64,000 nucleotides of DNA from an uncultured Gammaproteobacteria bacterium (GCA_964649615.1 CAZYPW010000003.1:30132-94131); one strand, 5' to 3'; positions 8,638 to 55,769 are shown, counted from the stretch's first letter. Translations and numbers: made by a program. The notes: generated from the sequence alone by a model not told the origin.

Positions 8638-9081
8638 TCACTTGACTTCCTCAACTTTACCTACATCCATTAACCAGCCTTCTTTTAAGGCTTTTTGAGT
8701 TTCACCATAAACTTTTACTTTTTTGCCTTCATATTGGGACAGATCAACTACAGATGAGGTTAAAGCCACAGGCACTGCACCTTCTCTTTCTAAAATATGG
8801 GTTCCTTCAGTATATTCAGCTGGATTTTTAGGTTGAGATTTAACTTTGATGACTCCTTCTGCAAAATCTCTAAAGGTTTTTGTATCTTGCTGAGCACTTT
8901 TAGGAGCTGTAGCTACACTAGGGACAGCGAGCCCAGATTTTCCTCCACTTCTTGCCATAATCACACCTGAAACAACACCTAAAACTAAAGCTGTACCCAC
9001 AACCAAAGAGAGAAGTTTTACAGGGTCGGAAGAGGTATCAATCAGCTTTTTGGTTATTTTCTCAACATGAGTATTTTCCAT
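8638..9081 (-). CDS. Hypothetical membrane-anchored protein (N-terminal TM, soluble C-terminal domain)
   Basis: ORF of 147 aa with hydrophobic segment LLSLVVGTALVLGVVSGVIMA. No recognisable family. In operon position between prfB and ftsE. Confidence 0.35.
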   Translation of the reverse strand: MENTHVEKITKKLIDTSSDPVKLLSLVVGTALVLGVVSGVIMARSGGKSGLAVPSVATAPKSAQQDTKTFRDFAEGVIKVKSQPKNPAEYTEGTHILEREGAVPVALTSSVVDLSQYEGKKVKVYGETQKALKEGWLMDVGKVEEVK

Positions 9082-13230: not shown

Positions 13231-14249
13231 TGAAGCTTTTAGTAACTGGCGGAGCTGGATTTATTGGTTCTAATTTTATTCATTACTGGTTAAATTCACA
13301 CTCCCAAGATCAAGTTATCAATTTAGATGTTTTAACTTATGCAGGACACCTAGAATCTCTTAAAGATATTGAAGAATCCGCCAGCTGGCGGACTAATTAC
13401 AAATTTGTCCAAGGTGATATTACTGATCCAGAGGTTGTTAAAGAAGCTATGATTGGTGTGGATATTGTGGTCCATTTTGCTGCTGAATCCCATGTTGACA
13501 GGTCAGTGATAGATCCTTTGCTTTTTGTTAAAACCAATGTTTTAGGGACAGCAATTTTATTAAATGCTGCATTAGATGCAAAAATTAAGAGATTTCACCA
13601 TATCTCAACAGATGAGGTTTTTGGGCAACTAGGCCCCAATGATCCTCCTTTTGATGAAAAAACTAAATATGATCCCCGTACTCCCTACTCAGCCTCCAAA
13701 GCAGGATCTGACCATTTAGTGAGAGCATATTTTGAGACATATGGCTTACCAGTGACCATTTCTAACTGTTCTAACAACTTCGGGCCATATCATGACCCGG
13801 AAAAATTAATCCCCAGATTTATCACCAATCTTTTAGAAGGGCAAAAAGTCCCTTTGATGGGAAAAGGAGAAAATATCAGGGACTGGGTTTATGTGGAAGA
13901 CCATAATAGGGCAGTGGATATTATTTTAGAAAAAGGGAAAGTGGGGGAAACCTATTGCATAGGAGGAGAGGAAAAAAGCAATTTTGAAGTAACCAAAAAG
14001 TTGCTGGAATTTTTAGGTAAAAATGAAAGTATGATTGAGTTTGTAGAACATAGATTAGGCCATGATTTTAGATATGCCATTGATGATGCAAAAATAAGAG
14101 CTTTAGGGTGGAGTCCTCAGGCGCCATTTGAGGAAAGGCTCAAAGAAACTGTGGAGTGGTTTAAAGAAAATGAGTGGTGGTGGAAACCCTTGAAAAATAA
14201 TAGGCCAAATGTAGATAGGGTGGCTCAGAAGGGATATCAAAATGGATAA
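13230..14249 (+). CDS. rmlB: dTDP-glucose 4,6-dehydratase
   Basis: MKLLVTGGAGFIGSNFIHYWL, YSASKAGSDHL, extended SDR. Start chosen at ATG 13230 (TAATG overlap with rmlA stop) rather than the upstream in-frame 13209. Confidence 0.88.
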   Translation: MKLLVTGGAGFIGSNFIHYWLNSHSQDQVINLDVLTYAGHLESLKDIEESASWRTNYKFVQGDITDPEVVKEAMIGVDIVVHFAAESHVDRSVIDPLLFVKTNVLGTAILLNAALDAKIKRFHHISTDEVFGQLGPNDPPFDEKTKYDPRTPYSASKAGSDHLVRAYFETYGLPVTISNCSNNFGPYHDPEKLIPRFITNLLEGQKVPLMGKGENIRDWVYVEDHNRAVDIILEKGKVGETYCIGGEEKSNFEVTKKLLEFLGKNESMIEFVEHRLGHDFRYAIDDAKIRALGWSPQAPFEERLKETVEWFKENEWWWKPLKNNRPNVDRVAQKGYQNG

Positions 14250-20506: not shown

Positions 20507-21246
20507 AAAACCTTCAACTATCAGTAGTGATACCTTCATATAATGAGGCAAAAAACTTAAAAAAAGGAAGTTTAGATAAAGTAGGCAATTATCTTAAAGA
20601 ACAAAAAATTGATTTTGAGGTAATAATTGTTGATGATGGTTCATCTGATTCCTCTGTGGAAATTATCAAAAAATATATTTCAAAAGTCAGAAATTTTAAA
20701 CTAATTCAAAATGCTCATGGAGGAAAAGCCATGGCTGTGATGACAGGCATGATGGAAAGTAAAGGTAATGTTATTCTATTCATAGATATGGATCAGGCCA
20801 CCCCAATTAATCAAATTGAAAAATTTATTCCCAAGTTTGAGGGTGGTTTTAACATTGTTATAGGGTCAAGGCAAGGCAGAAAAGGAGCCCCATTGATCAG
20901 AAAACTGGCAGCCTGGGGATTTTCAGTTTTAAGAGGGATAATTTTGGGATTGCCTTTTAAAGATACCCAGTGTGGGTTTAAAGCTTTTTCTTATGAAGCT
21001 GTAGAAAAATTAATTCCTAAAATTAAGCATGAATGGGGAGTGGTGCATTTTAAGGGAGGAGCAGTTAATGCAGGCTTTGATGTGGAACTTTTATATTTAG
21101 CTAAAAAATATGGGTTTAAAATTGCAGAAGTTCCTGTTGAGTGGAATTATGTAGATACAGAAAGAGTCCAGGTGATCAAAGATGCAGCTGCTGCCATCTA
21201 TGATATGTTAAGAATCAGGATCAATGATCTTTTAGGAAAATATTAA
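20503..21246 (+). CDS. GT2 glycosyltransferase (GtrB/DPM1-like polyprenyl-phosphate sugar synthase)
   Basis: LSVVIPSYNEAKNL, IIVDDGSSDSS, FIDMDQ (DxD). 247 aa soluble GT2. Confidence 0.75.
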   Translation: MKNLQLSVVIPSYNEAKNLKKGSLDKVGNYLKEQKIDFEVIIVDDGSSDSSVEIIKKYISKVRNFKLIQNAHGGKAMAVMTGMMESKGNVILFIDMDQATPINQIEKFIPKFEGGFNIVIGSRQGRKGAPLIRKLAAWGFSVLRGIILGLPFKDTQCGFKAFSYEAVEKLIPKIKHEWGVVHFKGGAVNAGFDVELLYLAKKYGFKIAEVPVEWNYVDTERVQVIKDAAAAIYDMLRIRINDLLGKY

Positions 21247-21284
21247 CCCTGTTAGATTTTTTATAAGTGTGGTAACTTAATCTA

Positions 21285-21824
21285 ATGAGTGATACTCAAG
21301 AAATTTGCCCTAAATGTGGTGCTCCCTTAGGAGAAGTAACAGAAACTCAAAGCGGTAAAAAGCTGCAAAGATGTTCCACTGGATCCTGGAATAAAGAAAC
21401 CAGAAAAAATGAAGGATGTGACTATGTGAAGTGGATACAAGCTGAACCACAAGAGTTAGATGAAAAATGTCCCAAGTGTGGTAATAATTTAATCCTGCAA
21501 GTTACCAGATTTGGCAAGAAGATGAAAAAATGTTCAACAGGTGGTTGGGATGCTGTTGAGAAAAAAGCCACAGGATGTGATTATGTGGAGTGGATTAACG
21601 GAACATCAGAACCCCTTGATATGGATTGTCCAACATGCGGGGAGAAACTGGTATTATTTACAACCTCTGCCGGCAAGAAAATGGAGAAGTGTTCCACATC
21701 CGGCTGGGATAGTGTTAATAGGAAACCAACAGGGTGTACTTATGTTAAATGGCTTAAATCCGGTGAAGTCCCAGCCTCAAATGCAGGTGAAGAATTCCTT
21801 CCACCCCCACCAAAAGAAGAGTAA
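21285..21824 (+). CDS. Protein made of three tandem C4 zinc-ribbon repeats (topoisomerase-I-type/YrdD-like Zn-ribbon variant)
   Basis: Three ~43-aa repeats CPxCGxxL...GKKMxKCSTxGWDxVxxKxTGCxYVxW at aa 7-49, 62-104 and 115-157. 12 Cys total. Confidence 0.55.
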   Translation: MSDTQEICPKCGAPLGEVTETQSGKKLQRCSTGSWNKETRKNEGCDYVKWIQAEPQELDEKCPKCGNNLILQVTRFGKKMKKCSTGGWDAVEKKATGCDYVEWINGTSEPLDMDCPTCGEKLVLFTTSAGKKMEKCSTSGWDSVNRKPTGCTYVKWLKSGEVPASNAGEEFLPPPPKEE

Positions 21825-21833
21825 GATACTATC

Positions 21834-21863
21834 TTGACATACTGACTATATGGTCAGTATTAT
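21834..21863 (+). promoter_or_regulatory. Consensus-like sigma70 promoter (TTGACA-18-TATTAT) overlapped by a perfect 8-N6-8 palindrome ATACTGAC-tatatg-GTCAGTAT (putative LexA-type operator)
   Basis: TTGACA at 21834-21839, TATTAT at 21858-21863. Palindrome 21839-21860 spans the spacer. lexA-like ATG only 9 nt downstream of the -10 (near-leaderless). Confidence 0.5.
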
Positions 21864-21872
21864 AGATAAGTT

Positions 21873-22508
21873 ATGGATACAGTTACTGCCAATCAGAATG
21901 AAAGATTAACTGAAAGACAAAAACAAACCCTGGTGTATATTTATAGTTGCATTAGATATTCAGGATATCCACCTACCTTATCCCAGTTGCGGGAAGAACT
22001 GCAAGTTGTGTCTAATCAGGCAGTCATTGATCTTTTAAAAATTCTGGAAAATAAAAAATACATTCAAAAAGAAGAAAATTCTGCGCGTGCTCTTAAAGTA
22101 ACTCAAAAAGGGTATGAAGAACTAAATGTTTCTCCCTATGCTCCTATGGTCGGGACTACAGCCGCAGGACCGTTTATGGACACTCTAGAACAATATGGCG
22201 AGTGGAAAGAAATATCATCTGATTTATCTAAGCTTTCGGAAAAGCTTGCGCTTTTTAAAATAAAAGGGGATTCAATGACTGGAGCCGGGCTGAGTGAAGG
22301 GGATATTGTGGTTGTGCAGTATGAAATAAATGAATTCCGGAATGGGGATATTGTTTTGGCAAAAAACGATGAAGGGACAACAATAAAAAGATTTGTAAAT
22401 GTAAATGGAAAAATACACTTAGCGCCGGAAAATCCAAAATATTCAAAAATTCCGTTTACTCCAGACTTGCGTCTTATAGGAAAAGTAATCTCAAAAATTG
22501 AAGTATGA
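21873..22508 (+). CDS. lexA: LexA-like repressor (winged-HTH DNA-binding domain + S24 autopeptidase domain)
   Basis: N-term LTERQKQTLVYIYSCIRYSGYPPTLSQLREEL...AVIDLLKILENKKYI. Ala-Gly cleavage region TTAAGPF. C-terminal GDSM...K Ser/Lys dyad region (KGDSMTGAG ... TIKRF). Confidence 0.8.
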   Translation: MDTVTANQNERLTERQKQTLVYIYSCIRYSGYPPTLSQLREELQVVSNQAVIDLLKILENKKYIQKEENSARALKVTQKGYEELNVSPYAPMVGTTAAGPFMDTLEQYGEWKEISSDLSKLSEKLALFKIKGDSMTGAGLSEGDIVVVQYEINEFRNGDIVLAKNDEGTTIKRFVNVNGKIHLAPENPKYSKIPFTPDLRLIGKVISKIEV

Positions 22509-24442
22509 ACACAAAAGAAATTCTGGATAAAATATTTAAAAGCCCTGACCAAAATTATGGCCTTTTGGAATTTAGCAGCCTTCATCCGGAGGATATTTTA
22601 AATATTTTTGAAAAAGAGCCTGGAAAATATTACTTAAAGTGTTTTATCCGGAATAAAGATTTACTTGTTTGGAATGAAGAGAAACAAATTGGAGAACCTG
22701 AAGAAATAGTCAGACAACTTTGGATTCAGAAATTAATAAAAGAATATGAATATCCGCAAGATAGATTAACTGTTGAAGTTACTGTTGATTTTGGGAGGGA
22801 AGTTCATGAAAAAGCAGCAGATATTGTAGTTCTTCAGGATGATAAAGAAACTGCCTGGGTTATCATTGAAACAAAAAGTCCTGATTCAAAAGACGGACTT
22901 GAGCAAATAAAAAGTTACCTTAATGCAAAAGGCGGTCCCATTGGAGTATTAAGTGATGGAAAATCAAAAGTAATTTTATACAGGCCTTATCCGCACCAAT
23001 TTGAAAATACACTTCGGAATATTCCGCGGGCTAATCAAACCATTCAAGATGTTTTTGAATCTCGCCTTACTATAAATGATCTTGAGACTAATTTTGATTT
23101 GGTAAAGATCATTAAAGTTTTAGAAGAGTTGGTTTTGGCGGGCGCAGGTGTTGATTCATTTAATGAAATTTTCAAACTTATTTATGCAAAATTGTATGAC
23201 GAAAAGTACGCAAAGGATCGGAAAGATGAACTTTTATTCCGCCAGTCATCAGATCCGAGAATAACTTACGATAATATTAATAAACTTTTTGAGGATGCAA
23301 AAAAAGAATGGCCGGGAATGTTTTTGGCCGGGGAATCGATTCAACTTTCACCTTCTCATTTGTCGGTATGCATTGGGGAACTGGAAAAAATAAAATTATA
23401 TGATGCGAATTTAGAAATTGTAGACCAGGCATTTGAATATTTGCTTCCGGATGTTGCCAAAGGGAAAAAAGGGCAATATTTTACCCCCCGTCATGTCATA
23501 GATATGGTGGTTAAAATGCTAAATCCTAAAGAAGAAGAGTATGTGATTGATCCGGCTTCCGGATCCGGCGGGTTTTTAATCCATGCGATGCAGTGGGTTT
23601 GGGATCATGGCCTTTTGGAAAAATCCCGGGAAACAAAAATAAATTACGCGGCAACCCACATTTACGGAATAGATTTTGATGATAAGCCGGTAAAAATTTC
23701 CCGCGCTTTAATGCTTATTGCCGGAGACGGAAAATCTCATGTATTTAAATTAAACTCCTTAAACCCAGCAGAATGGAGTGGAGATGAGGGAGAAAAAGGG
23801 GTAGCAAGATATGAGTTACAGCAAAGGTTGCATGAATTTGATGACTATACAAAAGATGAGGATAATAAAAAACATTTTAATGTTTTTGATTTTGATATTT
23901 TACTAAGCAATCCCCCCTTTGCCGGCGAAATAAAAGAAAGAACACTTCTTAATGAATACGAGCTGGCAAAAAACGATAAAGGTAAACTTCGCAACAAAAT
24001 GGAAAGGCATATCCTCTTCATTGAAAGAGCGCTGAACTTGTTAAAACCCGGAGGAAGAATGGCAATAGTGCTACCTCAAGGAGTTCTCAATAATACCAAT
24101 ATGGAATACATTAGAAATTGGATTTTTGATAAAGCCAGAATTTTGGCTGTGGTTGGACTGCATGTAAATACTTTTAAACCACATACAGGTACAAAAACCT
24201 CTGTAATATTTTTGCAAAAATGGGCAGATGATGAAAAAATCCCAGATGATTATCCAATATTTATGGCGGTTTCCAAAAATAGTGGGAAAGATAACAGCGG
24301 TGATTATATGTATAAAAAAGACGCGGAAGGAAATTTTATTATGGATAGCAAAGGGCACAAAGCGGTTAATCATGATCTTAATCAAATAGCAGATTCATTT
24401 ATAGAATTTGCAAAAAAGGAAGGGTTTAGTTTTTGGAGGTAA
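22505..24442 (+). CDS. Restriction-modification A subunit: N-terminal PD-(D/E)xK HSDR_N-like nuclease domain fused to N6-adenine DNA methyltransferase (type IIB/BcgI-like; alternatively atypical type I HsdM)
   Basis: N-term D-IVVL...IIETK...LEQIKSYL...PIGVLSDGK. MTase motif I VIDPASGSGGFL, FTPRHV, motif IV LLSNPPFAGE. 645 aa (BcgI A is ~637 aa). ATGA overlap with lexA-like stop. Confidence 0.65.
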   Translation: MNTKEILDKIFKSPDQNYGLLEFSSLHPEDILNIFEKEPGKYYLKCFIRNKDLLVWNEEKQIGEPEEIVRQLWIQKLIKEYEYPQDRLTVEVTVDFGREVHEKAADIVVLQDDKETAWVIIETKSPDSKDGLEQIKSYLNAKGGPIGVLSDGKSKVILYRPYPHQFENTLRNIPRANQTIQDVFESRLTINDLETNFDLVKIIKVLEELVLAGAGVDSFNEIFKLIYAKLYDEKYAKDRKDELLFRQSSDPRITYDNINKLFEDAKKEWPGMFLAGESIQLSPSHLSVCIGELEKIKLYDANLEIVDQAFEYLLPDVAKGKKGQYFTPRHVIDMVVKMLNPKEEEYVIDPASGSGGFLIHAMQWVWDHGLLEKSRETKINYAATHIYGIDFDDKPVKISRALMLIAGDGKSHVFKLNSLNPAEWSGDEGEKGVARYELQQRLHEFDDYTKDEDNKKHFNVFDFDILLSNPPFAGEIKERTLLNEYELAKNDKGKLRNKMERHILFIERALNLLKPGGRMAIVLPQGVLNNTNMEYIRNWIFDKARILAVVGLHVNTFKPHTGTKTSVIFLQKWADDEKIPDDYPIFMAVSKNSGKDNSGDYMYKKDAEGNFIMDSKGHKAVNHDLNQIADSFIEFAKKEGFSFWR

Positions 24443-24443
24443 T

Positions 24444-24959
24444 ATGAAAAACAAGAAGGAAAAAATATACGCTTTTATAGACAGCCAGAATTTAAATCTT
24501 TCAGTAAGAAATGATATTATCCGAAAGAGGAAAACAGTATATAAAGGATGGCAGCTTGATTTTGAGCGTTTCAACGTTTATATAAAAGCAAAATACCGTG
24601 TCACTAAGTCCTTTCTATTTATCGGGTACAGAAAGGAGAATCAGAATTTGTATGATCGTTTAAATGCGGCAGGGTACGTCCTTATTTTTAAACCGACTCT
24701 TGATTCTCAGGGAAAAACAAAAGGAAATGTTGATGCAGAATTAGTTCTTCATGCCATGGATAAAATTCGGAGATATGATAAGGCTGTATTGGTAACAGGA
24801 GATGGTGACTTTCATTGTCTTGTAGAGTATTTAATCAAGAAAAGGAAATTATATAAAGTCCTTATACCCAATCAATACAGCTACTCCTCTCTTTTAAGGA
24901 AATTTAAACAATATATATCTTTTGTTAACGTATTAAAGAATAAGCTGGAGAGGAAATAA
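24444..24959 (+). CDS. NYN (LabA/Limkain/YacP-like, PIN-fold) nuclease domain protein
   Basis: IYAFIDSQNL...GNVDAELVLHAMD...AVLVTGDGDF are the acidic motifs of the NYN domain. Start set at ATG 24444 preceded by GGAGG, rather than the overlapping 24408. Confidence 0.65.
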   Translation: MKNKKEKIYAFIDSQNLNLSVRNDIIRKRKTVYKGWQLDFERFNVYIKAKYRVTKSFLFIGYRKENQNLYDRLNAAGYVLIFKPTLDSQGKTKGNVDAELVLHAMDKIRRYDKAVLVTGDGDFHCLVEYLIKKRKLYKVLIPNQYSYSSLLRKFKQYISFVNVLKNKLERK

Positions 24960-25082
24960 AGCGAGTTTGTTGCTTCGCAATAAAAAAGACAGGCATTTGC
25001 GCGGCATGAAAGCCTTTGCAGGAGCCTGTCATCGTGATTAGTAGTAGTATACGTTTATATTAAAGTAAAGTCAAGACTAACT

Positions 25083-26444
25083 ATGTCATTTTCAATAATT
25101 CAAAAATCTCAACTTGAAGGAGCGTATAGATTGGATGCGGAATATTATCAGCCGGAATACTTAGAAGTAGTCAATAAAATTTCAAAAATTCCCCACAATA
25201 TCTTAGAAAATATCTCTGAGAGCTTGTTAAGCTTCGGAGCATATTCACTTACCAGTTCTATAGTATGGCAGGAGTCTGGGATCCCATTTATCACAGCAGA
25301 AGACATCAAAGAAGGATTTATTGCTCTTGAAAACGTACGCTTTATAGATGAGAGGGCAGATGAAATTTTAAAAAAGTCTAGAGTTCATGAAGGCGAAGTG
25401 TTATTGGCTATGTCAGGTAAAGTTGGAGATACGGCTGTAGCGATTAATATTCCACCACGGCTTAATTCGAACCAAGATATAGTCAAAATTAAACTTAAAA
25501 AAAATTATTCGTCATACCTTCTCGCTGCTTTTCTGAACTCTACGTATGGAAGATTACAAATATTACGTCTCCCAGTTGGAAGCGTACAGCAACATATATT
25601 TCTTTGGCAAACTAAGTCATTATTGGTTCCAAAATTTCCGAAGAATCTCATTGAAGAAGTTGAACAGTCATATAAATTAGGGCTAGAAGAACTTGAAAAT
25701 TCAAGATTACTTTACAAACAAGCTGAAGACGTACTATTGAATGGATTGGGGCTCAAGAATTTTCAAGTTGAAGATGATTTATGTTTTGTTGTTAATCTTT
25801 CAGGTGTAAAATCTGCAAACAGAGTTGATGCTGAACATTTTCAGCCAAAATACGAAGAGTTATTAGAGAAAATTCAGCAAAAGAATACTAAAGTATTTAC
25901 TGACGTTATTAGGAATGTAACAGCAAAATTTAATCCTCTTAAAACATCAGATGAAACTTTTAAATATGTCGAACTTGCAAACATAAATTCTTCAATTGGA
26001 GTCATTGATGGATATTCAGAGATTCTAGGAAAGGAAGCACCAAGTAGAGCTAAAAGATTACTTAAAAAGGGAGATGTTATTGTATCAAGTGTTGAAGGTT
26101 CATTGGAAAAAGTCGCACTAGTAGATGGTACTCAAGAGGGGTACTTGGCCTCTACAGGATTTTTTCAGCTTAGATCAGAAGGAATATTGCCAGAAGTGCT
26201 TTTAGTTTTAGCAAAAAGTATTGTTATGCAGTGGCAATTAAAAAAACATTGCGCAGGAACCATCTTAACAGCAGTACCTAGTGAATCTTTACAGAAAATG
26301 TTTGTACCCGCAATACCAAAGGAGACTCAGCAAAAAATTGCGGAGTTGGTAAGAAAGTCGCATGAAGCCAGAAAGAAATCAAGAGAGCTTTTAGAAGAAG
26401 CAAAAAGAAAAGTTGAAGAGATGATAGAAAAGGGTAGTTCGTGA
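25083..26444 (+). CDS. hsdS: Restriction-modification specificity (S) subunit with two target-recognition domains
   Basis: Internal duplication (RLDAEYYQPEY / RVDAEHFQPKYEELL). Conserved HsdS helices LLVPKFPKNLIEEVEQ and MFVPAIPKETQQKIAELV. 453 aa. Confidence 0.75.
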   Translation: MSFSIIQKSQLEGAYRLDAEYYQPEYLEVVNKISKIPHNILENISESLLSFGAYSLTSSIVWQESGIPFITAEDIKEGFIALENVRFIDERADEILKKSRVHEGEVLLAMSGKVGDTAVAINIPPRLNSNQDIVKIKLKKNYSSYLLAAFLNSTYGRLQILRLPVGSVQQHIFLWQTKSLLVPKFPKNLIEEVEQSYKLGLEELENSRLLYKQAEDVLLNGLGLKNFQVEDDLCFVVNLSGVKSANRVDAEHFQPKYEELLEKIQQKNTKVFTDVIRNVTAKFNPLKTSDETFKYVELANINSSIGVIDGYSEILGKEAPSRAKRLLKKGDVIVSSVEGSLEKVALVDGTQEGYLASTGFFQLRSEGILPEVLLVLAKSIVMQWQLKKHCAGTILTAVPSESLQKMFVPAIPKETQQKIAELVRKSHEARKKSRELLEEAKRKVEEMIEKGSS

Positions 26445-26456
26445 TAGAATAACTTC

Positions 26457-27011
26457 ATGGCTGAAAGTTCAATGATTCCTTTGGGGACAAGCTTACCGCA
26501 ATTTTCTTTAGTTGATGTAGTGTCTGACAATACTGTTTCATCTGCTGATTTTTCCGGCAAACCTTTATTGGTGATGTTTATTTGCAGGCATTGCCCGTAT
26601 GTTAAACATGTGCAAAATGAACTGGTAGGATTGGGTAAAGATTACGAAGATAAAATTGGCATGGTGGCAATTTCTTCTAATGATATTGAGAGTTATCCTG
26701 AAGATGCGCCTGATTCTTTAAAACAGCAAGCACAGAAGATTGGATTTAATTTCCCTTATCTTTATGAGGAAAGCCAGGATGTAGCCAAAAGTTTTAGCGC
26801 AGCTTGTACCCCTGATTTATTTCTATTTAATAATGAAGGAAAGTTGGTTTACCGGGGACAATTGGATGACAGCAGACCAGATAGCGGTATTCCAGTGACC
26901 GGAAAAGATTTAAGAGCAGCTATAGATTTCCTACTTTCCGATCGAAGCATAAACTTGGACCAAAAACCCAGTGTGGGTTGTGGCATAAAATGGAAATCTT
27001 CAGTACAATAG
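26457..27011 (+). CDS. Thioredoxin-fold redoxin-family protein (CxxC)
   Basis: KPLLVMFICRHCPYVKH with CxxC. Redoxin/AhpC-TSA-like layout. 184 aa. Confidence 0.55.
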   Translation: MAESSMIPLGTSLPQFSLVDVVSDNTVSSADFSGKPLLVMFICRHCPYVKHVQNELVGLGKDYEDKIGMVAISSNDIESYPEDAPDSLKQQAQKIGFNFPYLYEESQDVAKSFSAACTPDLFLFNNEGKLVYRGQLDDSRPDSGIPVTGKDLRAAIDFLLSDRSINLDQKPSVGCGIKWKSSVQ

Positions 27012-27015
27012 AATA

Positions 27016-28509
27016 GTGAAGCTGATTTTAAAACACAAAGTTGAAATATTAATTATTTTAAGTTTAATTAGCGTATATTTTATTCTAAGGTTGCCTAATT
27101 TAACCTTGCAGCCTATTTTTGCAGATGAGGCAATTTATATCAGATGGGCACAAGTTATGAGAGCAGAGCCCACCTTAAGGTTCCTGCCTGTTTCTGATGG
27201 CAAAACTCCCTTGTTCATGTGGACTTTAATGCCTTTACTTAAATTTATCCCTGATCCACTTTTGGCAGGAAGGCTGCTGTCTGTTTTAGTGGGTTTTTTA
27301 ACTTTGTTAGGAGTATATTTTCTTTCCAAAAAAGTGTTTGGCATACAAGCTGCTTTTTGGGCTGCTCTTTTATATGTAATTACTCCATACACTGTTTTTT
27401 TTGATAGGATGGCTTTGGTGGATTCTATGCTAGCAGGTTTTACTATATGGATAATTTATTTTGCTATCTGGCTTATTAAAAAAACTAGATTAGATATAGC
27501 TATGATTTTAGGATATTTAATAGGAGGAGGGATTTTAACTAAAACTCCTGGGATGATTAATCTGTTGTTACTGCCAATCACCCTTATAGCTGTTAAATGG
27601 AGGAGAAAGTATCCAATTTTAAAAGTAGTGATGTTTTGGACTGTTACTATCTTTGTAGCTTTAGTTATGTATAACATACTGAGGTTAGGACCCCAATTTC
27701 AGATTTTATCTTCTAGAAATACTGACTATGTTTTTTCTCCCCTGGAACTGGTTGGCAGGCCGCTAGATCCTTTTATTCCCCATATGAGAGATCTGTCTGA
27801 TTGGTTTCCCAAACTGTTTACCTGGCCTATACTTTTTTGTATAGCGATAGGCATTTTATATACCTTAATTAAGACTAATAGGCTGGGTTTAATAATCTTA
27901 CTTTGGGCAGTAGTTCCATTGCTGGTTCAGTCTGCCTTTTTAAAAACTTTTACAGCTAGATATTTACTATCTTCTATACCCCCACTTTTAATTATTGGGG
28001 GCTTTGGCATCACCAATCTTTTGCCAAAGTTCTCTGCTTTTAATAGGTTTTCCTACCTTTTAATGCTAATTGTGGTTTTGCCACTGGCTTTAAATTTTGA
28101 CTTCTTGCTTCTTACTGATCCCCAAAAGGCCCCTTTGCCTAGGGCAGAAAGAATTGGTTATTTTGAGGAGTGGACTGCCGGATATGGTTTTTTTGAGATA
28201 GCCTCTTTCCTAAAAGACCAAAGAAGATTGGGAAAAGTAGTAGTTGGAACAGAAGGTTCTTTTGGAACGCTGCCAGATGGTTTACAAATATATCTAGATA
28301 AAGAGGACATAGCAGTAATAGGCAGTACTGGAAGTATTTCTGCACAAATTAAAGGTTCAGCCAAGGATAATTTAACTTTTTTTGTGGGAAATAAATTAAG
28401 GTTAGAAAATGGCATAGATGGAGTAGAAATAATTAAAGAATACCCTAAAGCTAAACCACCAAAAAATGGCAAACAAGATGCAATTGTCTTGTTTAAAGTT
28501 TTGCCTTAA
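27016..28509 (+). CDS. GT-C glycosyltransferase, family 39/83-like (ArnT/PMT-like, polyprenyl-phosphate-sugar dependent)
   Basis: First-loop motif PIFADEAIYIRWAQVM...GKTPLFMW. About 12 TM. Confidence 0.7.
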   Translation: MKLILKHKVEILIILSLISVYFILRLPNLTLQPIFADEAIYIRWAQVMRAEPTLRFLPVSDGKTPLFMWTLMPLLKFIPDPLLAGRLLSVLVGFLTLLGVYFLSKKVFGIQAAFWAALLYVITPYTVFFDRMALVDSMLAGFTIWIIYFAIWLIKKTRLDIAMILGYLIGGGILTKTPGMINLLLLPITLIAVKWRRKYPILKVVMFWTVTIFVALVMYNILRLGPQFQILSSRNTDYVFSPLELVGRPLDPFIPHMRDLSDWFPKLFTWPILFCIAIGILYTLIKTNRLGLIILLWAVVPLLVQSAFLKTFTARYLLSSIPPLLIIGGFGITNLLPKFSAFNRFSYLLMLIVVLPLALNFDFLLLTDPQKAPLPRAERIGYFEEWTAGYGFFEIASFLKDQRRLGKVVVGTEGSFGTLPDGLQIYLDKEDIAVIGSTGSISAQIKGSAKDNLTFFVGNKLRLENGIDGVEIIKEYPKAKPPKNGKQDAIVLFKVLP

Positions 28510-28513
28510 GGAA

Positions 28514-30217
28514 ATGGATTTTTTAAAAAATAGGCCTTACAAATTTTGGCTTATCCTAACAATTATTTTTATCATGCCTACCTTTTATCAACTATTAAGG
28601 TTAGGTTTTTTTCCAATGCAGGATGACCTGCAGGCCTTTAGAGTGCATCAAATGGTTAAGTGCTTAAAAGATTTTCAAATCCCCTGCAGATGGGTTCCTG
28701 ACATGGGTTATCAATATGGCTATCCCCAGTTTAACTACTATAGCCCAACACCTTATTATTTTGGAGCTTTGCTTAATTTATTAGGTTTACAAATTATTGA
28801 TTCAGTGAAGATTTTATTTATAGCAGGATTTATTTTATCAGCAGCCTCAATGTTTGTTTTTTTAAAAGCTTTATTTAATCCTCAAATTGCCTTTGTTGGG
28901 TCAGTCTTTTATAGCTATGCCCCTATTAAAGCATCCCAAGTTTATGTCAGAGGATCTCTTAGTGAATTTTGGGCATTTATCTTTTTGCCTTTAATTTTTT
29001 GGTCAACTTTGCAGTTAATCAGATTAGGTAAAGTTAAATATCTGATTTGGTTTTCTATCTCCCTTTTTTTACTGCTGACTACTCATAATTTAACGACCTT
29101 TATTTTTTTACCAATACTTTTAGGGTGGTTTTTTTTAACTGCATTCTTAGAAAAAAAATGGCAGAATTTAACTTGGGTGGGAATGGGATTTCTTTTAGGA
29201 GCAGGATTGGCATCTTTTTATCTTTTGCCTTTAATATTTGAGAGAGATTATGTTCATCTGGAAAGTTTATTGGGAGGATATTTTGATTATAGGCAGCATT
29301 TTGTCAGTATTAAGCAGTTACTTTTTTCTAATTATTTTGGGTATGGGTCTTCTGTGTTTGGATTAAATGATGAGGTCAGTTTATCAGTGGGAATCATGCA
29401 TGGAGTTTTTGGACTGTTAGCCTTAATCTTGTCAATGCTCTTTTTTAAAAAAGATAAAAAGATCTCTCTAATAATTTGGAGCTTGTTTTTGCTAGAAACT
29501 TTAGTTTTATTTTTAATGCATCAAAGATCTTCATTTATTTGGGAAAGAATTCCTCTTTTGCACTGGCTACAATTTCCCTGGAGGTTTTTAACTATCTCTT
29601 TATTCTTGCTGACAATTTTAGGTGTAAGCAGCATTTATCTAATCAATAAAATTAATCAAAAAGCAGCCCTTTTTATAAGTTTAATATTAATTACCAGTGT
29701 CATTGTTTTACACGGCGGATTTTATAAACCCCGTGAATGGTTTAATATTTCAGATCAGGAAAAATTTTCTGGCCAGTTGTGGGAAAAACAGTTAACAATC
29801 AGTATTTTTGACTATCTTCCTATTTATGCTAAACTTCCTCCTAATAAAAAGGCTCCTTTGGAACCAGAGGTTTTAGAAGGTGATGTAAAATTTATCAGTT
29901 ACAAAAAAGGAAGCAATTTTCAAAAAGGGGTAATTGAAGTGGGAGGGGATTCTATTATTAGAGTTCCCTTATTTGATTTTCCTGGCATGGCAGTTAGGCT
30001 AAATAATCAAAAGATTATTCATAAAAATAATGATTGCAGGGGGGAGGAATATTGTTTTGGATTAATAACTTTTGCAGTTCCTCAAGGTCAGCATACCTTT
30101 GAAGTTAAACTAGAAGATACCTTTATTAGGGCATTAGGGAATATAATAAGTTTAATTAGTATTTTGGCATTGTTCTTCTTAATATTTAAAAATTATGGTT
30201 CTAAAAAGATTAATTGA
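28514..30217 (+). CDS. Polytopic membrane protein of an uncharacterised GT-C-like family (conserved KCxxDFQIPCRWVPDxGxxYGYPxFNYY loop); paralog 1 of 4
   Basis: HQMVKCLKDFQIPCRWVPDMGYQYGYPQFNYYSPTPYYF. About 13 TM, then C-terminal extracytoplasmic domain plus TM anchor. Start moved to ATG 28514 (upstream part overlaps previous gene). Confidence 0.5.
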   Translation: MDFLKNRPYKFWLILTIIFIMPTFYQLLRLGFFPMQDDLQAFRVHQMVKCLKDFQIPCRWVPDMGYQYGYPQFNYYSPTPYYFGALLNLLGLQIIDSVKILFIAGFILSAASMFVFLKALFNPQIAFVGSVFYSYAPIKASQVYVRGSLSEFWAFIFLPLIFWSTLQLIRLGKVKYLIWFSISLFLLLTTHNLTTFIFLPILLGWFFLTAFLEKKWQNLTWVGMGFLLGAGLASFYLLPLIFERDYVHLESLLGGYFDYRQHFVSIKQLLFSNYFGYGSSVFGLNDEVSLSVGIMHGVFGLLALILSMLFFKKDKKISLIIWSLFLLETLVLFLMHQRSSFIWERIPLLHWLQFPWRFLTISLFLLTILGVSSIYLINKINQKAALFISLILITSVIVLHGGFYKPREWFNISDQEKFSGQLWEKQLTISIFDYLPIYAKLPPNKKAPLEPEVLEGDVKFISYKKGSNFQKGVIEVGGDSIIRVPLFDFPGMAVRLNNQKIIHKNNDCRGEEYCFGLITFAVPQGQHTFEVKLEDTFIRALGNIISLISILALFFLIFKNYGSKKIN

Positions 30218-31862
30218 TAAATTCTGGCCACATTTAATTATTTTTATTTTATCTTTACTAGTTGCTTGGCCAATTTTTTTGCCTGGATATTTTTCCCATC
30301 ATGATGATTTGCAGGTTATGAGAGTTTTTGAGATGAGAAAATGCCTGGAGGATTTTCAGATTCCTTGTAGGTGGGTACCAGATTTAGGTTTTGGCAACGG
30401 CTATCCTTTATTTAATTACTATAATAGCCTTCCTTATTATATAGGAGCTTTAGCCAGTTTTACCCTGGGCTTTATAGGCGGGGCAAAATTATTATTCTTA
30501 ATTGCTGTAATCTTGGCTGGATTCTCCATGTATCTTTTAGCAAATAGGCTTTTTGGATTATATCCTAGCTTAGTGGCAGCTACCCTTTATATATATGCAC
30601 CATATAGAGCACTGGATATATATGTTAGAGGTGCAATTGCTGAGAGTTTTTCTTTGGCGATCATCCCGCTAGTATTTTATTTTGCCATAAGAGCCTCAAA
30701 GGAAAACTTAGTAAAAAATTATATCTTCCTGAGCCTTTCCCTGGCAGCTTTTCTAGCTAGCCATAATATTATGACCCTGCTTTTTTCACCTTTAATAGTT
30801 CTTTTTTTTATCATTATGCTTTGGGGAAAAAATTGGCAGGTAGCTAAAAAGACCCTATTTTTTATAAGTCTAGGGTTGGGGTTGTCTAGTTTTTTTATTT
30901 TGCCGGCATTTTTGGAAAAAGATTTAGTGCAGATAGATAATTTGACAAGATTAGAGCTAGATTTCAGAGCCCACTTTGTCACTTTACCTCAACTCTTTTT
31001 AGATAGAACTTGGGGTTATGGGGCTTCCTTTCCTGGAGTGGGGGACACTATTTCTTTTCAGGTAGGTTGGCCTCATTGGTTAATAGTGATTTTATCTATT
31101 CCCTCGTTAGTTTTCTTAAAAAGAAAGAACCTGAGATTATTTTGGCTCAGTTTAATGATGTTGCTATTTTTTAGTTTCCCCCTATTTATGGCTCATAACA
31201 GGTCTGCCTTTATTTGGGAACAGATTGGGATTTTGAGGTTTACCCAATTTCCCTGGAGATTTTTATCAGTGGCAATTTTTACTAGTAGCTTATTAGGTGC
31301 AATTTTAATTTATAACTTTAAAATTAGTTGGCAAAAAATCATGGTTATCATCTTAGTTCCAGTAATAATTTTGTTAAATTGGAGTTACTTTAGGCCACAT
31401 CAATTTTATCCAAATCTCACAGACCAGGAAAAGCTTTCGGGAGTACTTTGGCAGACCCAGCAAAGAGCTTCAATCCTGGACTATCTTCCTGTTACTGCTG
31501 TGGAACCTAGGGAAGCAGCCCCATCAGAACCTATTATTGTCTCAGGCCAAGCAGAAGTTAATAATTTTAAGAACAGGTCAAATAGATGGGAATTTAAAAT
31601 AAATGTTTTATCACCAACTGTTGTAGAAATGCCAGTGTTTGATTTTCCTAAGTGGCAGGTATATGTAGATGGAAAGAAGGTAGATCACTCAAATAAAAAT
31701 TACTTGGGCAGAATAAGCATCAATCTCCCTTCTGGTAATTATAAAGTGGTAGGAAAATTTGAAAATACCCCAATAAGGATTCTGGGTAACCTTGTTACCT
31801 TTGTTTCTATTGCAATTATTATATTTTTAACCTATGGGAAAATTGGAAAAATTAGTAGATAA
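30195..31862 (+). CDS. Same family, paralog 2 of 4
   Basis: FEMRKCLEDFQIPCRWVPDLGFGNGYPLFNYYNSLPYYI. Same architecture. Confidence 0.5.
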   Translation: MVLKRLIDKFWPHLIIFILSLLVAWPIFLPGYFSHHDDLQVMRVFEMRKCLEDFQIPCRWVPDLGFGNGYPLFNYYNSLPYYIGALASFTLGFIGGAKLLFLIAVILAGFSMYLLANRLFGLYPSLVAATLYIYAPYRALDIYVRGAIAESFSLAIIPLVFYFAIRASKENLVKNYIFLSLSLAAFLASHNIMTLLFSPLIVLFFIIMLWGKNWQVAKKTLFFISLGLGLSSFFILPAFLEKDLVQIDNLTRLELDFRAHFVTLPQLFLDRTWGYGASFPGVGDTISFQVGWPHWLIVILSIPSLVFLKRKNLRLFWLSLMMLLFFSFPLFMAHNRSAFIWEQIGILRFTQFPWRFLSVAIFTSSLLGAILIYNFKISWQKIMVIILVPVIILLNWSYFRPHQFYPNLTDQEKLSGVLWQTQQRASILDYLPVTAVEPREAAPSEPIIVSGQAEVNNFKNRSNRWEFKINVLSPTVVEMPVFDFPKWQVYVDGKKVDHSNKNYLGRISINLPSGNYKVVGKFENTPIRILGNLVTFVSIAIIIFLTYGKIGKISR

Positions 31863-33510
31863 ATACTGGTTTATTATCTTAATAGTTCTGTCCATTCCCG
31901 CTACTTGGGCATTATTTGTTAATGGTTACTATGGAGCTTCAGATGATATGCATCCGGCTTGGTTATATGAGCTGGATAAAACCATAAAGTTAGGACAAAT
32001 CCCTCCCAGGTTTGTACCAGATTTGAGTTTTGGATTTGGTTATCCCTTATTCAATTTTGCCTTTCCTCTGCCTTTTTATATAGCAGAGGTTTTCCATCTG
32101 TTAGGATTTTCCCTGGTTGATAGCATTAAAACAGTTTTTTTCTTAAGCATTCCTCTTTCAGCTTATTTTATGTATCTCTTTTTAAGAGAGTTTATAAGTA
32201 GAACTTTAAGTTTAGCTGGGGCAGTTCTTTATATCTATGCTCCTTACAGAGCAGTTGATATATATATCAGGGGAACAATAGGGGAGATTGTTAGTTTTAT
32301 ATTCTTACCGCTGATCTTTTTGTCTTTATTTAAGCTAAAGCATGCTTTCAACGGGAGATGGATTGGGATTGGAGGGTTTGCTCTTGCTTCCCTAGTCTTG
32401 TCGCACAATATTGCTGCTTATATGTTTTTTCCTTTTTTAATCCTATTTTTTGTATTGCATTTAATTTTTTCCTCAAAAAAATTACTATTTTTAATAAATT
32501 CTATTTTGATGGTTTTTCTAGCCCTTTTGATCAGTATTTATTTTTGGCTACCAGCACTAGTAGAAAGTAGTTTAATGAAGTATGATGCTGTTTTTAATTT
32601 TGCTGATCATTTTCCTACTATTAAACAGCTATTTACTCCCTATTGGGGGTACGGGTCTTCAGTGCCTGGGCCTTATGATGGCATGTCTTTCTTTTTAGGA
32701 ACTGTACATATTTTAATGATAGTTTTGGGTATAAGTTTATCTATCAGTTTTTGGAAAAAGTTTAATAAAAATATCAAGATATTACTAATATGGGTTTTTT
32801 TGTCTTTAAGTGCTGTCTTTTTCATCATGAACTATAGATCTTCTTTTTTATGGAGCAACATCCCTCTTCTGCCTTATTTTCAATTTCCTTGGAGATTTTT
32901 AATATTAACTACTTTTGCCATACCACTATTGATAGTAGTTTTTGATAAGTTTAAGCATAAATATAGTATTTCTTTGTTAATAATTATTATTACTTTAATT
33001 ACAGGTTGGAGTTATTTTCGGCCTCAAGATTTTCTGGGCCGCCAGGATGTTTATTATCTAAACCGCTATATTCCCACTCCAACTGCAAGTTTAGAATATT
33101 TAAAAATTCAAGAAGAATATTTACGATTACCAAAAAATACTGATAAAAGGCCGGATCGGAATTATCCTTTGGTTTTTATAGATAATGGATTAATTAAACA
33201 GGTAAGCAGGATAAATGACTTGGATGTTTTAATAAGAACGGAGGCAACTTCAGTTGCCACACTTAATTATAGTAAATATTTGTTTCCTGGTTGGGTGGCT
33301 GAAATAGATGGTCAGAAAACAGAAACTTTAGCTGGTAAACCATTTGGACAAATTACTGTGAATGTAGCTTCAGGCAGCCATACAGTTAAAATTATATTTG
33401 AGGAAACAAACTTTAAGAGATTCTTAAATGCTATCTCTTTGGTTAGTTTTTTAGTATCATTAGGATTAATCACAAACTTGTGGCCTCGAGTATTCAGACT
33501 CTTTAAGTAG
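31834..33510 (+). CDS. Same family, paralog 3 of 4 (lacks the conserved Cys pair)
   Basis: YELDKTIKLGQIPPRFVPDLSFGFGYPLFNFAFPLPFYI. Same architecture. Confidence 0.5.
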   Translation: MGKLEKLVDKYWFIILIVLSIPATWALFVNGYYGASDDMHPAWLYELDKTIKLGQIPPRFVPDLSFGFGYPLFNFAFPLPFYIAEVFHLLGFSLVDSIKTVFFLSIPLSAYFMYLFLREFISRTLSLAGAVLYIYAPYRAVDIYIRGTIGEIVSFIFLPLIFLSLFKLKHAFNGRWIGIGGFALASLVLSHNIAAYMFFPFLILFFVLHLIFSSKKLLFLINSILMVFLALLISIYFWLPALVESSLMKYDAVFNFADHFPTIKQLFTPYWGYGSSVPGPYDGMSFFLGTVHILMIVLGISLSISFWKKFNKNIKILLIWVFLSLSAVFFIMNYRSSFLWSNIPLLPYFQFPWRFLILTTFAIPLLIVVFDKFKHKYSISLLIIIITLITGWSYFRPQDFLGRQDVYYLNRYIPTPTASLEYLKIQEEYLRLPKNTDKRPDRNYPLVFIDNGLIKQVSRINDLDVLIRTEATSVATLNYSKYLFPGWVAEIDGQKTETLAGKPFGQITVNVASGSHTVKIIFEETNFKRFLNAISLVSFLVSLGLITNLWPRVFRLFK

Positions 33511-33519
33511 AAAAAGATT

Positions 33520-35253
33520 ATGCTTCCAATAAATATTTTTAAGAATAAAATTTTAAAGAGCAATTGGCCATTTTTTGTAGGTTTGATCTTAACGCTCAGC
33601 CTCCTTTGGCCACTTGTGGCTGCATCCTTTTTTAACCATCATGATGATGTCCAGGTAATTAGGCTTCATCAAATGGATAAATGTTTTAAAGACTTTCAAA
33701 TTCCTTGCAGGTGGGTACCAGACTTAGGAGGTCTATATGGTTACCCGATTTTTAACTATTATGCCCCAATGCCTTATTACTTTGGTGAAGTTATTTATTT
33801 TCTAAGCAATAATTTAATTTTTTCAGTAAAAATAATGTTTGCAGTAAGCTTTGTGGGAAGCTTTCTCTTTATGTATCTTCTCTCATCTCGTTTTTGGGGG
33901 AAATTGGGAGGTGCGTTATCTGCCATTTTTTATAGCTTTGCACCATATCATGCTCTAGATTTTTATGTCAGGGGGGCAATGGGTGAGATGTGGGCATTAA
34001 TGTTTTTTCCGGCCATCTTGTGGAGTGTAGTTAGGCTTGAGGATAAAACAAATGTTAAAAATCTAATATTTTTTTCTATCTTTTTATTTTTTCTTATAAC
34101 TTCCCATAATCTTTCAACTATTATTTTTTCACCAATAATTTTGGTTTGGATTTTTGTTCTTTATTTGAAAGATAAACACAAAAAATTTATCCTGTTTAGT
34201 TTAATGGGGATAATTTTAGGAGTTTTATTATCTGCATTTTACCTTTTCCCCATGGCTTTGGAAAAAAATCTGGTTCATGTTGAGACAACAACTTATGGAT
34301 ACTTTTCCTATACTGAGCATTTTAAGGGTTTAAGGAAATTGATTCTTGATAGATCCTGGGGCTGGGGAGGTTCTGTACGGGAAGTGCCAGGAGGAGAAAG
34401 AGAAGGCTTGTCATATCAAATAGGTTGGATTCATCTTCTAGCTTTGGCCTTATCTGTTATATCAGCCAAATACCTTATGAATAAAAACAGATGGTTAAGC
34501 TGGGTCATTATTTCATCAATAACTTTAGTTTTAATAAGTATTTTTATGATACATCCAAGGTCACAATTTATTTGGAAGATATTTGACGGGACACTTCGTT
34601 TTATTCAATTCCCCTGGAGATTTCTGATGATTACTATATTTTTTATATCTTTTATGTCGGGAAGCATATTTTTAAGAGGTATAAAGAGAGAAAAATTAGC
34701 TTGGAGTATTTTAGTTATTCTAGTTGTAACAGCTAATTTCTTTTATTTTAGGCCTGAGAAATTTTTATCAGCTACAGATAAAGATTTATTGTCAGGTGAA
34801 AATTGGGAAAGGCAAATAAAAAGATCAATATTTGATTATTTGCCTAAATCTGCTAAAGAACCCCCTGCTGAACTTGCCAAAGAAAGATATAAAATTTTAA
34901 CTGGAGATTCGCAAATTTTTGATTTTGAGCAAGGATCAAACTGGTTAAAATTTAAAACAGAGACCAATACTCATACTATTATCCGTTTATCCCAGTATTA
35001 TTTTCCGGGTTGGAAAATTCTAATAGATGGAAAAGAAACAAATGTAGAATATGCCAACAATAGTTTGGGTTTAATGACTATTATTTTAGGTAGAGGCAAC
35101 CATTTAGTTGAAGGTAGATTATATGATACCCAAATAAGGACTATTGGTAATATTACTACTTTAGTATTTTGGGTAGGGTTAGTTTTTGTCTTATTATTAC
35201 AATTCAAAAAAGTTCATCAATGGATTGAATATTATAGGAGGAGAATTAATTAA
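33520..35253 (+). CDS. Same family, paralog 4 of 4
   Basis: HQMDKCFKDFQIPCRWVPDLGGLYGYPIFNYYAPMPYYF. Same architecture. Confidence 0.5.
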   Translation: MLPINIFKNKILKSNWPFFVGLILTLSLLWPLVAASFFNHHDDVQVIRLHQMDKCFKDFQIPCRWVPDLGGLYGYPIFNYYAPMPYYFGEVIYFLSNNLIFSVKIMFAVSFVGSFLFMYLLSSRFWGKLGGALSAIFYSFAPYHALDFYVRGAMGEMWALMFFPAILWSVVRLEDKTNVKNLIFFSIFLFFLITSHNLSTIIFSPIILVWIFVLYLKDKHKKFILFSLMGIILGVLLSAFYLFPMALEKNLVHVETTTYGYFSYTEHFKGLRKLILDRSWGWGGSVREVPGGEREGLSYQIGWIHLLALALSVISAKYLMNKNRWLSWVIISSITLVLISIFMIHPRSQFIWKIFDGTLRFIQFPWRFLMITIFFISFMSGSIFLRGIKREKLAWSILVILVVTANFFYFRPEKFLSATDKDLLSGENWERQIKRSIFDYLPKSAKEPPAELAKERYKILTGDSQIFDFEQGSNWLKFKTETNTHTIIRLSQYYFPGWKILIDGKETNVEYANNSLGLMTIILGRGNHLVEGRLYDTQIRTIGNITTLVFWVGLVFVLLLQFKKVHQWIEYYRRRIN

Positions 35254-46165: not shown

Positions 46166-46202
46166 TTTACTAAGCAGTAAGAAACTGGTAAGATTTTTAC
46201 AT

Positions 46203-55623: not shown

Positions 55624-55695
55624 TCACTAGCAGAAAACCCCGTTTTCTTAAAACGAGGATGAATGCTAAAGTGATTACAGTCTTCCGCGGGATAG

Positions 55696-55769
55696 GTGGT
55701 ATACTGAGTTAAGGTTTTCTGCAGTTTCTTGTAAACTTTTAAAGAAAACCGCGGACTCTCAGTCCGCGG
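55696..55769 (+). promoter_or_regulatory. Extended -10 promoter (TGgTATACT) followed by a perfect GC-rich palindrome CCGCGGACT-ctc-AGTCCGCGG 13 nt upstream of the next GT39 start
   Basis: TGGTATACT at 55696-55704. 9-bp-arm palindrome at 55749-55769. Both read directly from sequence. Confidence 0.4.

Follow-up and report, generated by a model that had tools for sequence, protein, structure and literature searches.

A 64,000-nucleotide stretch of DNA from an uncultured Gammaproteobacteria bacterium (GCA_964649615.1, CAZYPW010000003.1:30132-94131; hereafter the window) carries, at positions 21873-26444, four genes in one orientation that encode a LexA-like repressor, a fused restriction-modification (RM) protein, a NYN-domain protein and a specificity (S) subunit. 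The layout in which a lexA gene heads RM genes recurs across bacteria of the Candidate Phyla Radiation (CPR), and is a real and conserved regulatory variant of RM systems, probably an under-described one. The reading preferred here, which we hold to be probable though far from assured, is that of an autoregulated operon in which one LexA-gated promoter would drive lexA, a BcgI/BsaXI-like RM enzyme with its S subunit and the NYN gene lodged between them, with de-repression through RecA. Type IIB enzymes, LexA repressors and cargo genes inside RM operons are each already known. A self-cleaving repressor of the LexA family as the regular head of an RM operon was not found in the literature searched; a 2017 study of the SOS response of Patescibacteria (PMID 28618189) lay outside that search and may hold part of it.

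The initial annotation had proposed four open reading frames (ORFs) here, and an ORF check of the window returned all of them in the order and at the coordinates it gave. The first, lexA (21873-22508, + strand), encodes 211 amino acids (aa) with a winged-helix DNA-binding domain and an S24 self-cleaving peptidase. Pfam matched LexA_DNA_bind (PF01726) at aa 10-73 (1.4e-12) and Peptidase_S24 (PF00717) at aa 91-206 (2.9e-24), and the score of 126.3 bits against the NCBIfam lexA equivalog TIGR00498 exceeded the cut-off of 110.95, in agreement with the S24/LexA-type repressor that had been proposed. The RM subunit (22505-24442, + strand; 645 aa) combines an N-terminal PD-(D/E)xK nuclease domain, a helical linker and a gamma-class N6-adenine methyltransferase (MTase); its matches to HSDR_N_2 (aa 65-174, 3.7e-19) and N6_Mtase (aa 304-642, 4.9e-40), the latter enclosing the NPPF motif at aa 469-472, bear out the nuclease-MTase fusion. 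The third gene (24444-24959, + strand) encodes a predicted PIN-like nuclease of LabA type of 171 aa. The NYN call was upheld by Pfam (PF01936, 1.5e-15), the same ATG was picked by an independent gene caller, and the closest solved relative in the PDB is the LabA-like 2qip (7.6e-8). The S subunit (25083-26444, + strand; 453 aa) matched the type I S structures 5ybb_D and 3okg_A at 1e-22. Two Methylase_S matches had been expected in it; Pfam gave one stretch only (aa 284-423), whereas the PADLOC Specificity_I (type I specificity) models covered both halves as two stretches, which indicates two target-recognition domains (TRDs).

The stop codon of lexA overlaps the start of the RM gene as ATGA at 22505-22508, as had been reported, and the NYN gene starts 1 nt past the RM stop with a GGAGG ribosome-binding site in front. 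No terminator-like site was found on the + strand between the genes from lexA through S; the two + strand sites of this kind in the span, at 21987 and 22579, are weak stems within coding sequence. Because the genes overlap or pack tightly and no intergenic + strand terminator-like site intervenes, co-transcription of lexA, RM, NYN and S from the operator-bearing lexA promoter is likely, in line with the initial annotation.

The promoter of the operon consists of the -35 hexamer TTGACA (21834-21839, + strand), which related loci keep in the same place, and the -10 hexamer TATTAT (21858-21863, + strand). Separated by 18 nt, these form the best sigma-70-like promoter match in 21200-27100, agreeing at 11 of 12 positions. 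The spacer is filled by a 20 bp palindrome, TACTGACTATATGGTCAGTA (21840-21859), with the core CTGAC-N6-GTCAG and one T.G imperfection, whose right end is overlapped by the -10 hexamer. TACTGACTATATGGTCAGTA holds the only exact match to TACTG-N10-CAGTA in the window, and with up to one mismatch the palindrome has three matches there against 1.09 expected, which is weak evidence from a single window. Its recurrence before lexA, at an identical place in the promoter on dozens of unrelated contigs, is far beyond chance. In the window and about 70 related loci the sequence before lexA is an inverted repeat with a GAC-N6-GTC core, always placed between a TTGAC(A) -35 and a TAnnnT -10. The relatives of the window, 21 of the first 86 fetched loci, have the CTGAC-N6-GTCAG form; most other loci carry CCGAC-N6-GTCGG or AGAAC...GTCGGGTA, and hybrids occur also.

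A position weight matrix (PWM) built from the lexA-promoter sites was applied at a threshold of 14 bits to the 64-kb window and to about 1.1 Mb of related loci. No site other than the lexA promoter reached the threshold in the window, and in the related loci few matches lay outside the primary lexA promoters. Two of these were strong, one in the promoter of the second, tandem lexA of locus L015 and the other (19 bits) before the RM gene of L081, at 8768-8791; weak matches (14.5-16 bits) were present in L024 and L034. L081 is the sole locus in which lexA and the RM gene stand about 440 bp apart, and this site suggests that LexA still governs its RM gene in spite of the separation. The exact 16-mer CTGACTAAATAGTCAG had at least 120 matches in metagenomes of the Joint Genome Institute, and all 26 lexA-adjacent ones were in promoter context. 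Among the matches listed without lexA, most were hairpins or coding sequence and two or three had a promoter-like flank. The clearest boxed promoter of this kind, besides the short contig L158, was that of L106 (4122-4137, - strand) and L146 (2786-2801), where CTGACTAAATAGTCAG stands in a promoter-like frame (TTGACC...GGTATTTTT) before a protein of 533-570 aa with no Pfam match, on contigs of 37-38% GC that have no lexA. One further match lay upstream of a TetR gene on an unrelated contig. Repair genes were found behind the box neither among the metagenome matches listed nor in the 1.1 Mb of flanks. Since its matches sit almost only at lexA promoters, the box is taken as the putative operator of the lexA operon, and the same loci and listed matches gave no sign of a wider regulon.

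Two other box-like sites in the window were discarded. A candidate second operator inside the RM gene (22698-22713, CTGAAGAAATAGTCAG) is a coding coincidence: the stretch specifies PEEIVRQ, a conserved peptide, with synonymous positions that vary freely among 55 homologues. The site at 13708-13723 is a chance match within a conserved SKAGSDHLVRAY stretch of a dTDP-glucose dehydratase-like gene. Separately, 34 of 81 loci were seen to have a perfect DnaA-box-like 9-mer, TTATCCACA, shortly before the lexA-RM promoter, the window being without it. It lies 10-40 nt upstream of the lexA -35 in loci L020-L086 (L033 at approximately 7935-7945, L036 at approximately 7940-7950), and the whole 1.1 Mb of loci contains 52 copies against about eight expected by chance. 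This element may be a second, replication-linked input to the operons or a lineage-specific promoter element.

The association of lexA with RM genes was found from both sides. A search with the RM fusion yielded 5,535 relatives at E ≤ 1e-10, the best 120 of which were 64-100% identical and, where named, came from Microgenomates and Parcubacteria. Seven relatives were looked up, selected by the length of their contigs and independently of gene context, and in all seven a LexA_DNA_bind + S24 gene lay immediately upstream and an S gene downstream, amid differing surroundings (FtsZ, trehalose-phosphate synthase, DUF3800 and others). From the lexA side, one genome per GTDB species (185,579 genomes) was scanned, giving 154 confirmed relatives, 80 of which were fetched; all of these loci belong to metagenome-assembled genomes of CPR/Patescibacteria type. 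The same RM fusion family follows lexA directly in 49 of the 80, the window thereby representing the commonest version of the arrangement among the fetched loci, and an S gene follows the RM gene in each of the 44 loci with enough sequence. Recurrence of the gene order in homologous loci had been set beforehand as a test by the initial annotation, and lexA-RM recurred in 7 of 7 and 49 of 80. In the 3 kb downstream of lexA, 63 of 65 informative loci had RM-type matches, and in the 3 kb upstream none of 64 did, so the coupling is general and directional in CPR.

Coupling of lexA to RM is also wider than one module, many unrelated RM types following the CPR lexA. The other informative loci carry about nine further types, including a beta-class N4/N6 MTase with an MvaI/BcnI endonuclease, a C5 MTase with an EcoRII-like endonuclease, DpnI, D12-class MTase fusions, a different N6_Mtase + S pair, an Eco57I-like MTase, a MutH/Sau3AI-like nuclease and an HNH nuclease. 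In L020 an IS605-family OrfB/TnpB gene with a Cas12f-like TNB domain (4282-5541) lies between lexA and N6_Mtase + S. RM homologues outside CPR had no lexA and took the form of RM and S pairs lacking HsdR, or of one 1179-aa fusion; a Klebsiella plasmid, for example, carries an RM-like gene and S with neither lexA nor HsdR. A viral origin of the cassette was considered and rejected, as nothing points to phage carriage. The CCGAC-type 16-mer had 14 matches in IMG/VR, mostly extended inverted repeats and about half of them with a T-run terminator tail, none of which was near a lexA, and a LexA search of viral contigs returned only distant CI-like S24 domains of about 30% identity.

The A98-G99 cleavage site of the LexA protein, its catalytic S134 and K172 are kept in 80-81 of 81 homologues. 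An Ala-Gly site with a Ser/Lys dyad is the requirement for RecA*-stimulated self-cleavage in LexA, CI and UmuD, and such strict conservation suggests that self-cleavage is still what the protein is for. From these residues and the promoter geometry we infer binding of LexA to the operator, RecA-dependent cleavage and induction by damage. A search with E. coli RecA detected no recA in the DNA of any fetched locus. Extra lexA/S24 paralogues were noted near RM-linked lexA genes in L015 (1205-2610), L041 (32-616), L059 (10254-10955) and L227 (5410-7688). Two lexA genes lie in tandem in L015, and both have a box of their own (CCGAC-type at 1205, CTGAC-type at 1994). In L227 a protein with S24 only, and after it a UvrD-type helicase, lie 2 kb upstream of the lexA-RM operon, adjoining a type III RM-like pair of MTase and ResIII helicase in a defence-island-like context.

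At least 95% of the 48 homologues taken from the loci retain the nuclease motif of the RM protein, D106...E122-x-K124, and likewise the MTase motifs DPASGSGGF (aa 349-357) and NPPF, and all three nuclease residues are invariant in 44 database relatives; nuclease activity of the enzyme is predicted on these grounds. Its best sequence match in the PDB was RM.BsaXI (4.9e-29), with type I HsdM chains at about 1e-14. An AlphaFold2 model was obtained with a mean predicted local distance difference test (pLDDT) score of 68.9, rising to about 85-90 in the nuclease domain. The top Foldseek match of this model was again BsaXI (8w0p_A, 1.7e-17), over 696 columns that take in the whole chain including the nuclease domain, and EcoKI M was aligned at 5.9e-9 over 419 columns. 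BsaXI itself belongs to type IIB and forms an (RM)2S assembly (PMC11997821). The large ORFs of the window included no ResIII or helicase gene, in accord with the initial annotation, and none was found next to the cassette in the seven related loci with Pfam calls; the ResIII gene in a wider view of L227 is part of the separate upstream MTase-helicase pair. With BsaXI first in both sequence and fold, and no HsdR, assignment of the enzyme as type IIB-like rather than type I is supported, as had been proposed with BcgI as the model.

A homologue 44% identical to the RM protein was observed on plasmid pAQ6 of Picosynechococcus sp. PCC 7002 (L226, 5977-9516). It is annotated as an 'N-6 DNA methylase' of 1179 aa, long enough for RM and S in one chain, the S part being putative and judged by length, and it adjoins a RelE/ParE toxin and a strawberry-notch helicase. 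This protein looks like a single-chain type IIB/IIG enzyme, and as its host is cultivable and transformable it could act as an experimental proxy.

In the NYN protein, residues D13, N16, D39, N95, D97, D120 and D122 are invariant among eight cassette-linked NYNs. The acidic PIN/NYN residues (D13, D39, D97, D120 and D122) being kept, the copy in the window is probably an active nuclease, and the NYN domain with these residues places it among the NYN/LabA-like PIN-fold proteins. The gene is far from constant in the cassette. Among the 44 loci with both RM and S genes, the gap between them is essentially nil in five or six, and in the remainder it holds one to four genes from more than 30 unrelated clusters. 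NYN made up 4 of 50 scanned gap proteins, with further copies in L101 (one) and L224 (two); the loci with NYN in this position are L010, L035, L043, L101 and L224, and most loci are without it. Families occupying the slot comprise, besides NYN, DUF4145, DUF3800, ClpP, GIY-YIG, Cthe_2314-type HEPN, PemK/MazF, an RnlA-like domain, PBECR3, trypsin-like + Trypco2, DUF6119, AAA_15/21 ATPase and YaaC. The RM-S gap accommodates exchangeable cargo of a toxin or abortive-infection-like kind, and NYN is not a conserved subunit. The suggestion of a fixed composite system of repressor, RM and NYN was accordingly abandoned, NYN being one of many swappable gap genes and some loci having no gap at all. Lying inside the operon, the cargo would share its LexA-gated expression.

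The main competing explanation, which we regard as unlikely, is that lexA is a housekeeping SOS gene whose real job is the regulation of repair, and that RM cassettes or mobile defence genes land downstream of it, through a hotspot or by promoter piggy-back, the coupling being a by-product. A LexA that scores above the equivalog cut-off with all cleavage residues kept fits this explanation, as do the changing RM type behind lexA, which a hotspot would predict, and the IS605/TnpB element between lexA and MTase in L020. It accords poorly with the strict directionality of the coupling, and with the strong operator matches in the 1.1 Mb of CPR DNA, which occur only at lexA promoters and before the separated RM gene of L081. 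Promoter-context metagenome matches among those listed likewise precede lexA, bar two or three unexplained sites, and no repair gene stands beside any box, although this is a weak point since recA is absent from all fetched flanks. For a housekeeping gene, 154 confirmed relatives across 185,579 species genomes amount to a patchy distribution, and the paralogues in L015, L041, L059 and L227 are tandem or nearby in defence-island-like contexts. Furthermore, the published LexA motif of Patescibacteria is described as a direct repeat in a later one-line summary by the same laboratory, and as so summarised it would differ from the palindrome seen here. Several considerations nevertheless weigh against the preferred reading. 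Operator binding, RecA-stimulated cleavage and induction are all predictions drawn from sequence. The operator scans covered the window, about 1.1 Mb of related loci and metagenome contigs, and control of repair genes beyond these would make this LexA an ordinary SOS repressor. Position 50 of LexA (Ala or Ser) follows the operator form (GTCAG or GTCGG), but this covariation is confounded by phylogeny, equally strong signals are spread over the protein, and hybrid operators exist. Type I systems of E. coli show 'restriction alleviation', the opposite of damage-induced restriction, so that the physiological logic of the latter is not obvious. With its mean pLDDT of 68.9 the AlphaFold2 model is of moderate quality, and the template modelling (TM) score of its alignment to BsaXI is low, 0.43, because the domains are oriented differently.

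Two other accounts concern the enzyme itself. RM and S could form an orphan epigenetic system that only methylates, with the HSDR_N-like domain serving as a non-catalytic module for DNA binding or assembly. Databases do name the family as an MTase only (PADLOC PDLC03034 'MTase_I' matches the RM protein end to end at 2e-189, and the records read 'N-6 DNA methylase'), and its identity of 53-84% across CPR classes could fit a housekeeping methylase. This account is nonetheless quite improbable in view of the conserved D106, E122 and K124, of a closest solved relative, BsaXI, that is a true endonuclease-methylase, and of the wealth of defence and toxin cargo in the neighbourhood; among the further RM types that follow lexA, moreover, are the bona fide endonucleases MvaI/BcnI, EcoRII-like and DpnI. 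More improbable still is a classical type I system with its HsdR translocase-nuclease encoded elsewhere in the genome. The resemblance of the S subunit and MTase core to HsdS and HsdM, and the wording 'Type I restriction enzyme' in some relatives' records, would be explained by it. Of the HsdR, HsdM and HsdS that define type I, however, HsdR was not found in the window, no ResIII or helicase gene adjoins the cassette in the seven loci with Pfam calls, the RM polypeptide has a nuclease domain of its own, and its E-value with BsaXI lies some 15 orders of magnitude below that with the best HsdM. The cyanobacterial plasmid homologue, fused to S in one chain in the manner of single-chain type IIB/IIG enzymes (its S-like part being deduced from length), argues in the same direction.

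Under the preferred reading of an autoregulated lexA-RM operon, a LexA dimer would bind the palindrome and occlude RNA polymerase, and lexA, the RM enzyme, the cargo and S would thereby be held at a low, self-limited level. RecA filaments, formed on single-stranded DNA arising from damage, from self-restriction breaks or from the degradation or replication of phage DNA, would then provoke self-cleavage of LexA at A98-G99 and de-repress the operon, with a joint rise in restriction, methylation and the NYN effector. An (RM)2S complex is the most likely form in which the RM enzyme would act, methylating a bipartite site and cutting nearby with no ATP-driven translocase. The NYN protein may be a swappable passenger of toxin or abortive-infection type that uses LexA-gated expression or, alternatively, a PrrC-like guard of the RM complex. 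The lexA module would then be the usual front end of many CPR RM types, in a role like that of a C protein but with a damage-sensitive off switch. The repressor-then-RM layout across CPR suggests a DNA-based immunity wired to a DNA-damage switch. We put forward more tentatively a broader view, in which a CPR LexA lineage with a palindromic operator of its own would have become the standard and portable master switch for many RM types and their cargo. Restriction, methylation and abortive-infection effectors would then make up an immune operon that is inducible by damage or phage instead of constitutive, under a LexA dedicated to defence and not to repair, with the DnaA-box-like element as a second, replication-linked input in many lineages.

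Mis-expression makes RM systems toxic, a problem to which the C-protein circuit is the known answer. If the interpretation is correct, a LexA at the head of an RM operon would be a second, mechanistically different solution, and the level of restriction and methylation would be tied to DNA damage or phage DNA processing as sensed by RecA. CPR bacteria have tiny genomes, mostly without CRISPR, and rely heavily on RM, so a regulatory rule for the main immune layer across the phylum would matter. The arrangement also offers a compact, portable 'promoter-operator-repressor' cassette. The RM-S gap amounts to a natural catalogue of candidate accessory defence effectors (NYN, MazF, HEPN, ClpP, DUF4145, DUF3800 and others), and the diverse S subunits of these short type IIB-like enzymes make the family a possible source of new specificities.

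A common chromosomal position of the cassettes was rejected, the flanks of different loci being non-syntenic; the sole shared flank is a zinc-ribbon gene in the window and L003. In the window this gene (21285-21824) adjoins the cassette and encodes a 179-aa protein of repeated Top1-type zinc ribbons, and its 68%-identical homologue in L003 (11794-12363, - strand) stands inverted at the other end of the cassette. Following S, an AhpC/TSA-like redoxin gene begins at 26457 of the window. Several Microgenomates cassettes, but not that of the window, have a PDDEXK_1 gene (Cas4/RecB-like nuclease, 246-275 aa) right after S, examples being L001 10197-10937, L003 10760-11587 and L011 12820-13560. Farther along the window, two long series of successive ORFs of about 490-580 aa occupy 27016-36722 and 50935-60639. 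Those examined (27016, 28466 and 30195) are hydrophobic membrane proteins, one of which matches PMT_2, a dolichyl-phosphate-mannose/ArnT-type glycosyltransferase family, and a further PMT_2 ORF lies just beyond the series at 42099-43706. Between them, 36719-42102 holds ORFs of 1135 and 658 aa with no Pfam match, and a YfhO-like gene is located at 43709-46324 (- strand). The region looks like an unusually large envelope-glycosylation region.

Among known systems, MADS supplies the best NCBIfam matches of the RM and S proteins (MAD2 and MAD5, nearly full length). MADS, the methylation-associated defence system of Pseudomonas aeruginosa, is an eight-gene operon that includes a kinase (bioRxiv 10.1101/2023.03.30.534895). 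Membership was rejected at 319.6 bits against a cut-off of 720 for MAD2 and 143.7 against 400 for MAD5, with six of the eight genes absent. The closest likeness is to the type IIB enzymes BsaXI and BcgI, which share one polypeptide composed of an N-terminal PD-(D/E)xK nuclease and a gamma-class N6-adenine MTase, a separate type I-like S subunit with two TRDs that provides specificity, and the lack of a helicase, no ATP-dependent translocase subunit having been found within the approximately 64 kb. Identity to BsaXI is about 21%, and the RM protein here, with 645 aa to the 916 aa of BsaXI, lacks the extra C-terminal region of that enzyme. We know of no type IIB enzyme that is headed by lexA or that has a cargo gene between RM and S.

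C-protein RM systems likewise employ a small operon-encoded DNA-binding regulator with a palindromic operator at its own promoter that sets RM expression (reviewed in PMC3874152). C proteins are short Xre-type helix-turn-helix regulators without a sensor domain that act at C-boxes and mainly activate and then repress transcription of the R gene, whereas the regulator here is a winged-helix + S24 repressor of the LexA family heading the whole operon, from which relief by RecA-type signals would follow; the likeness is functional only. With LexA/SOS regulons, lambda CI and SXT SetR the regulator shares its domain architecture, the Ala-Gly site and the Ser/Lys dyad, and an autoregulatory palindromic box, putative here, that overlaps the promoter; both its domains and its cleavage residues place it in the LexA family. 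It differs from LexA/SOS regulons in that the targets seen here are lexA-RM operons only, with no boxed repair or polymerase gene, and the LexA boxes of E. coli and of Gram-positive bacteria differ from the GAC-N6-GTC core. Finally, variable effector slots are known inside type I hsd operons, the classic case being the PrrC anticodon nuclease of EcoprrI, where a nuclease or toxin gene sits inside the RM operon between the methylase and specificity genes, as NYN does here. The present slot is similarly hypervariable, but NYN is unrelated to PrrC, and operon and cargo alike stand behind a predicted LexA operator.

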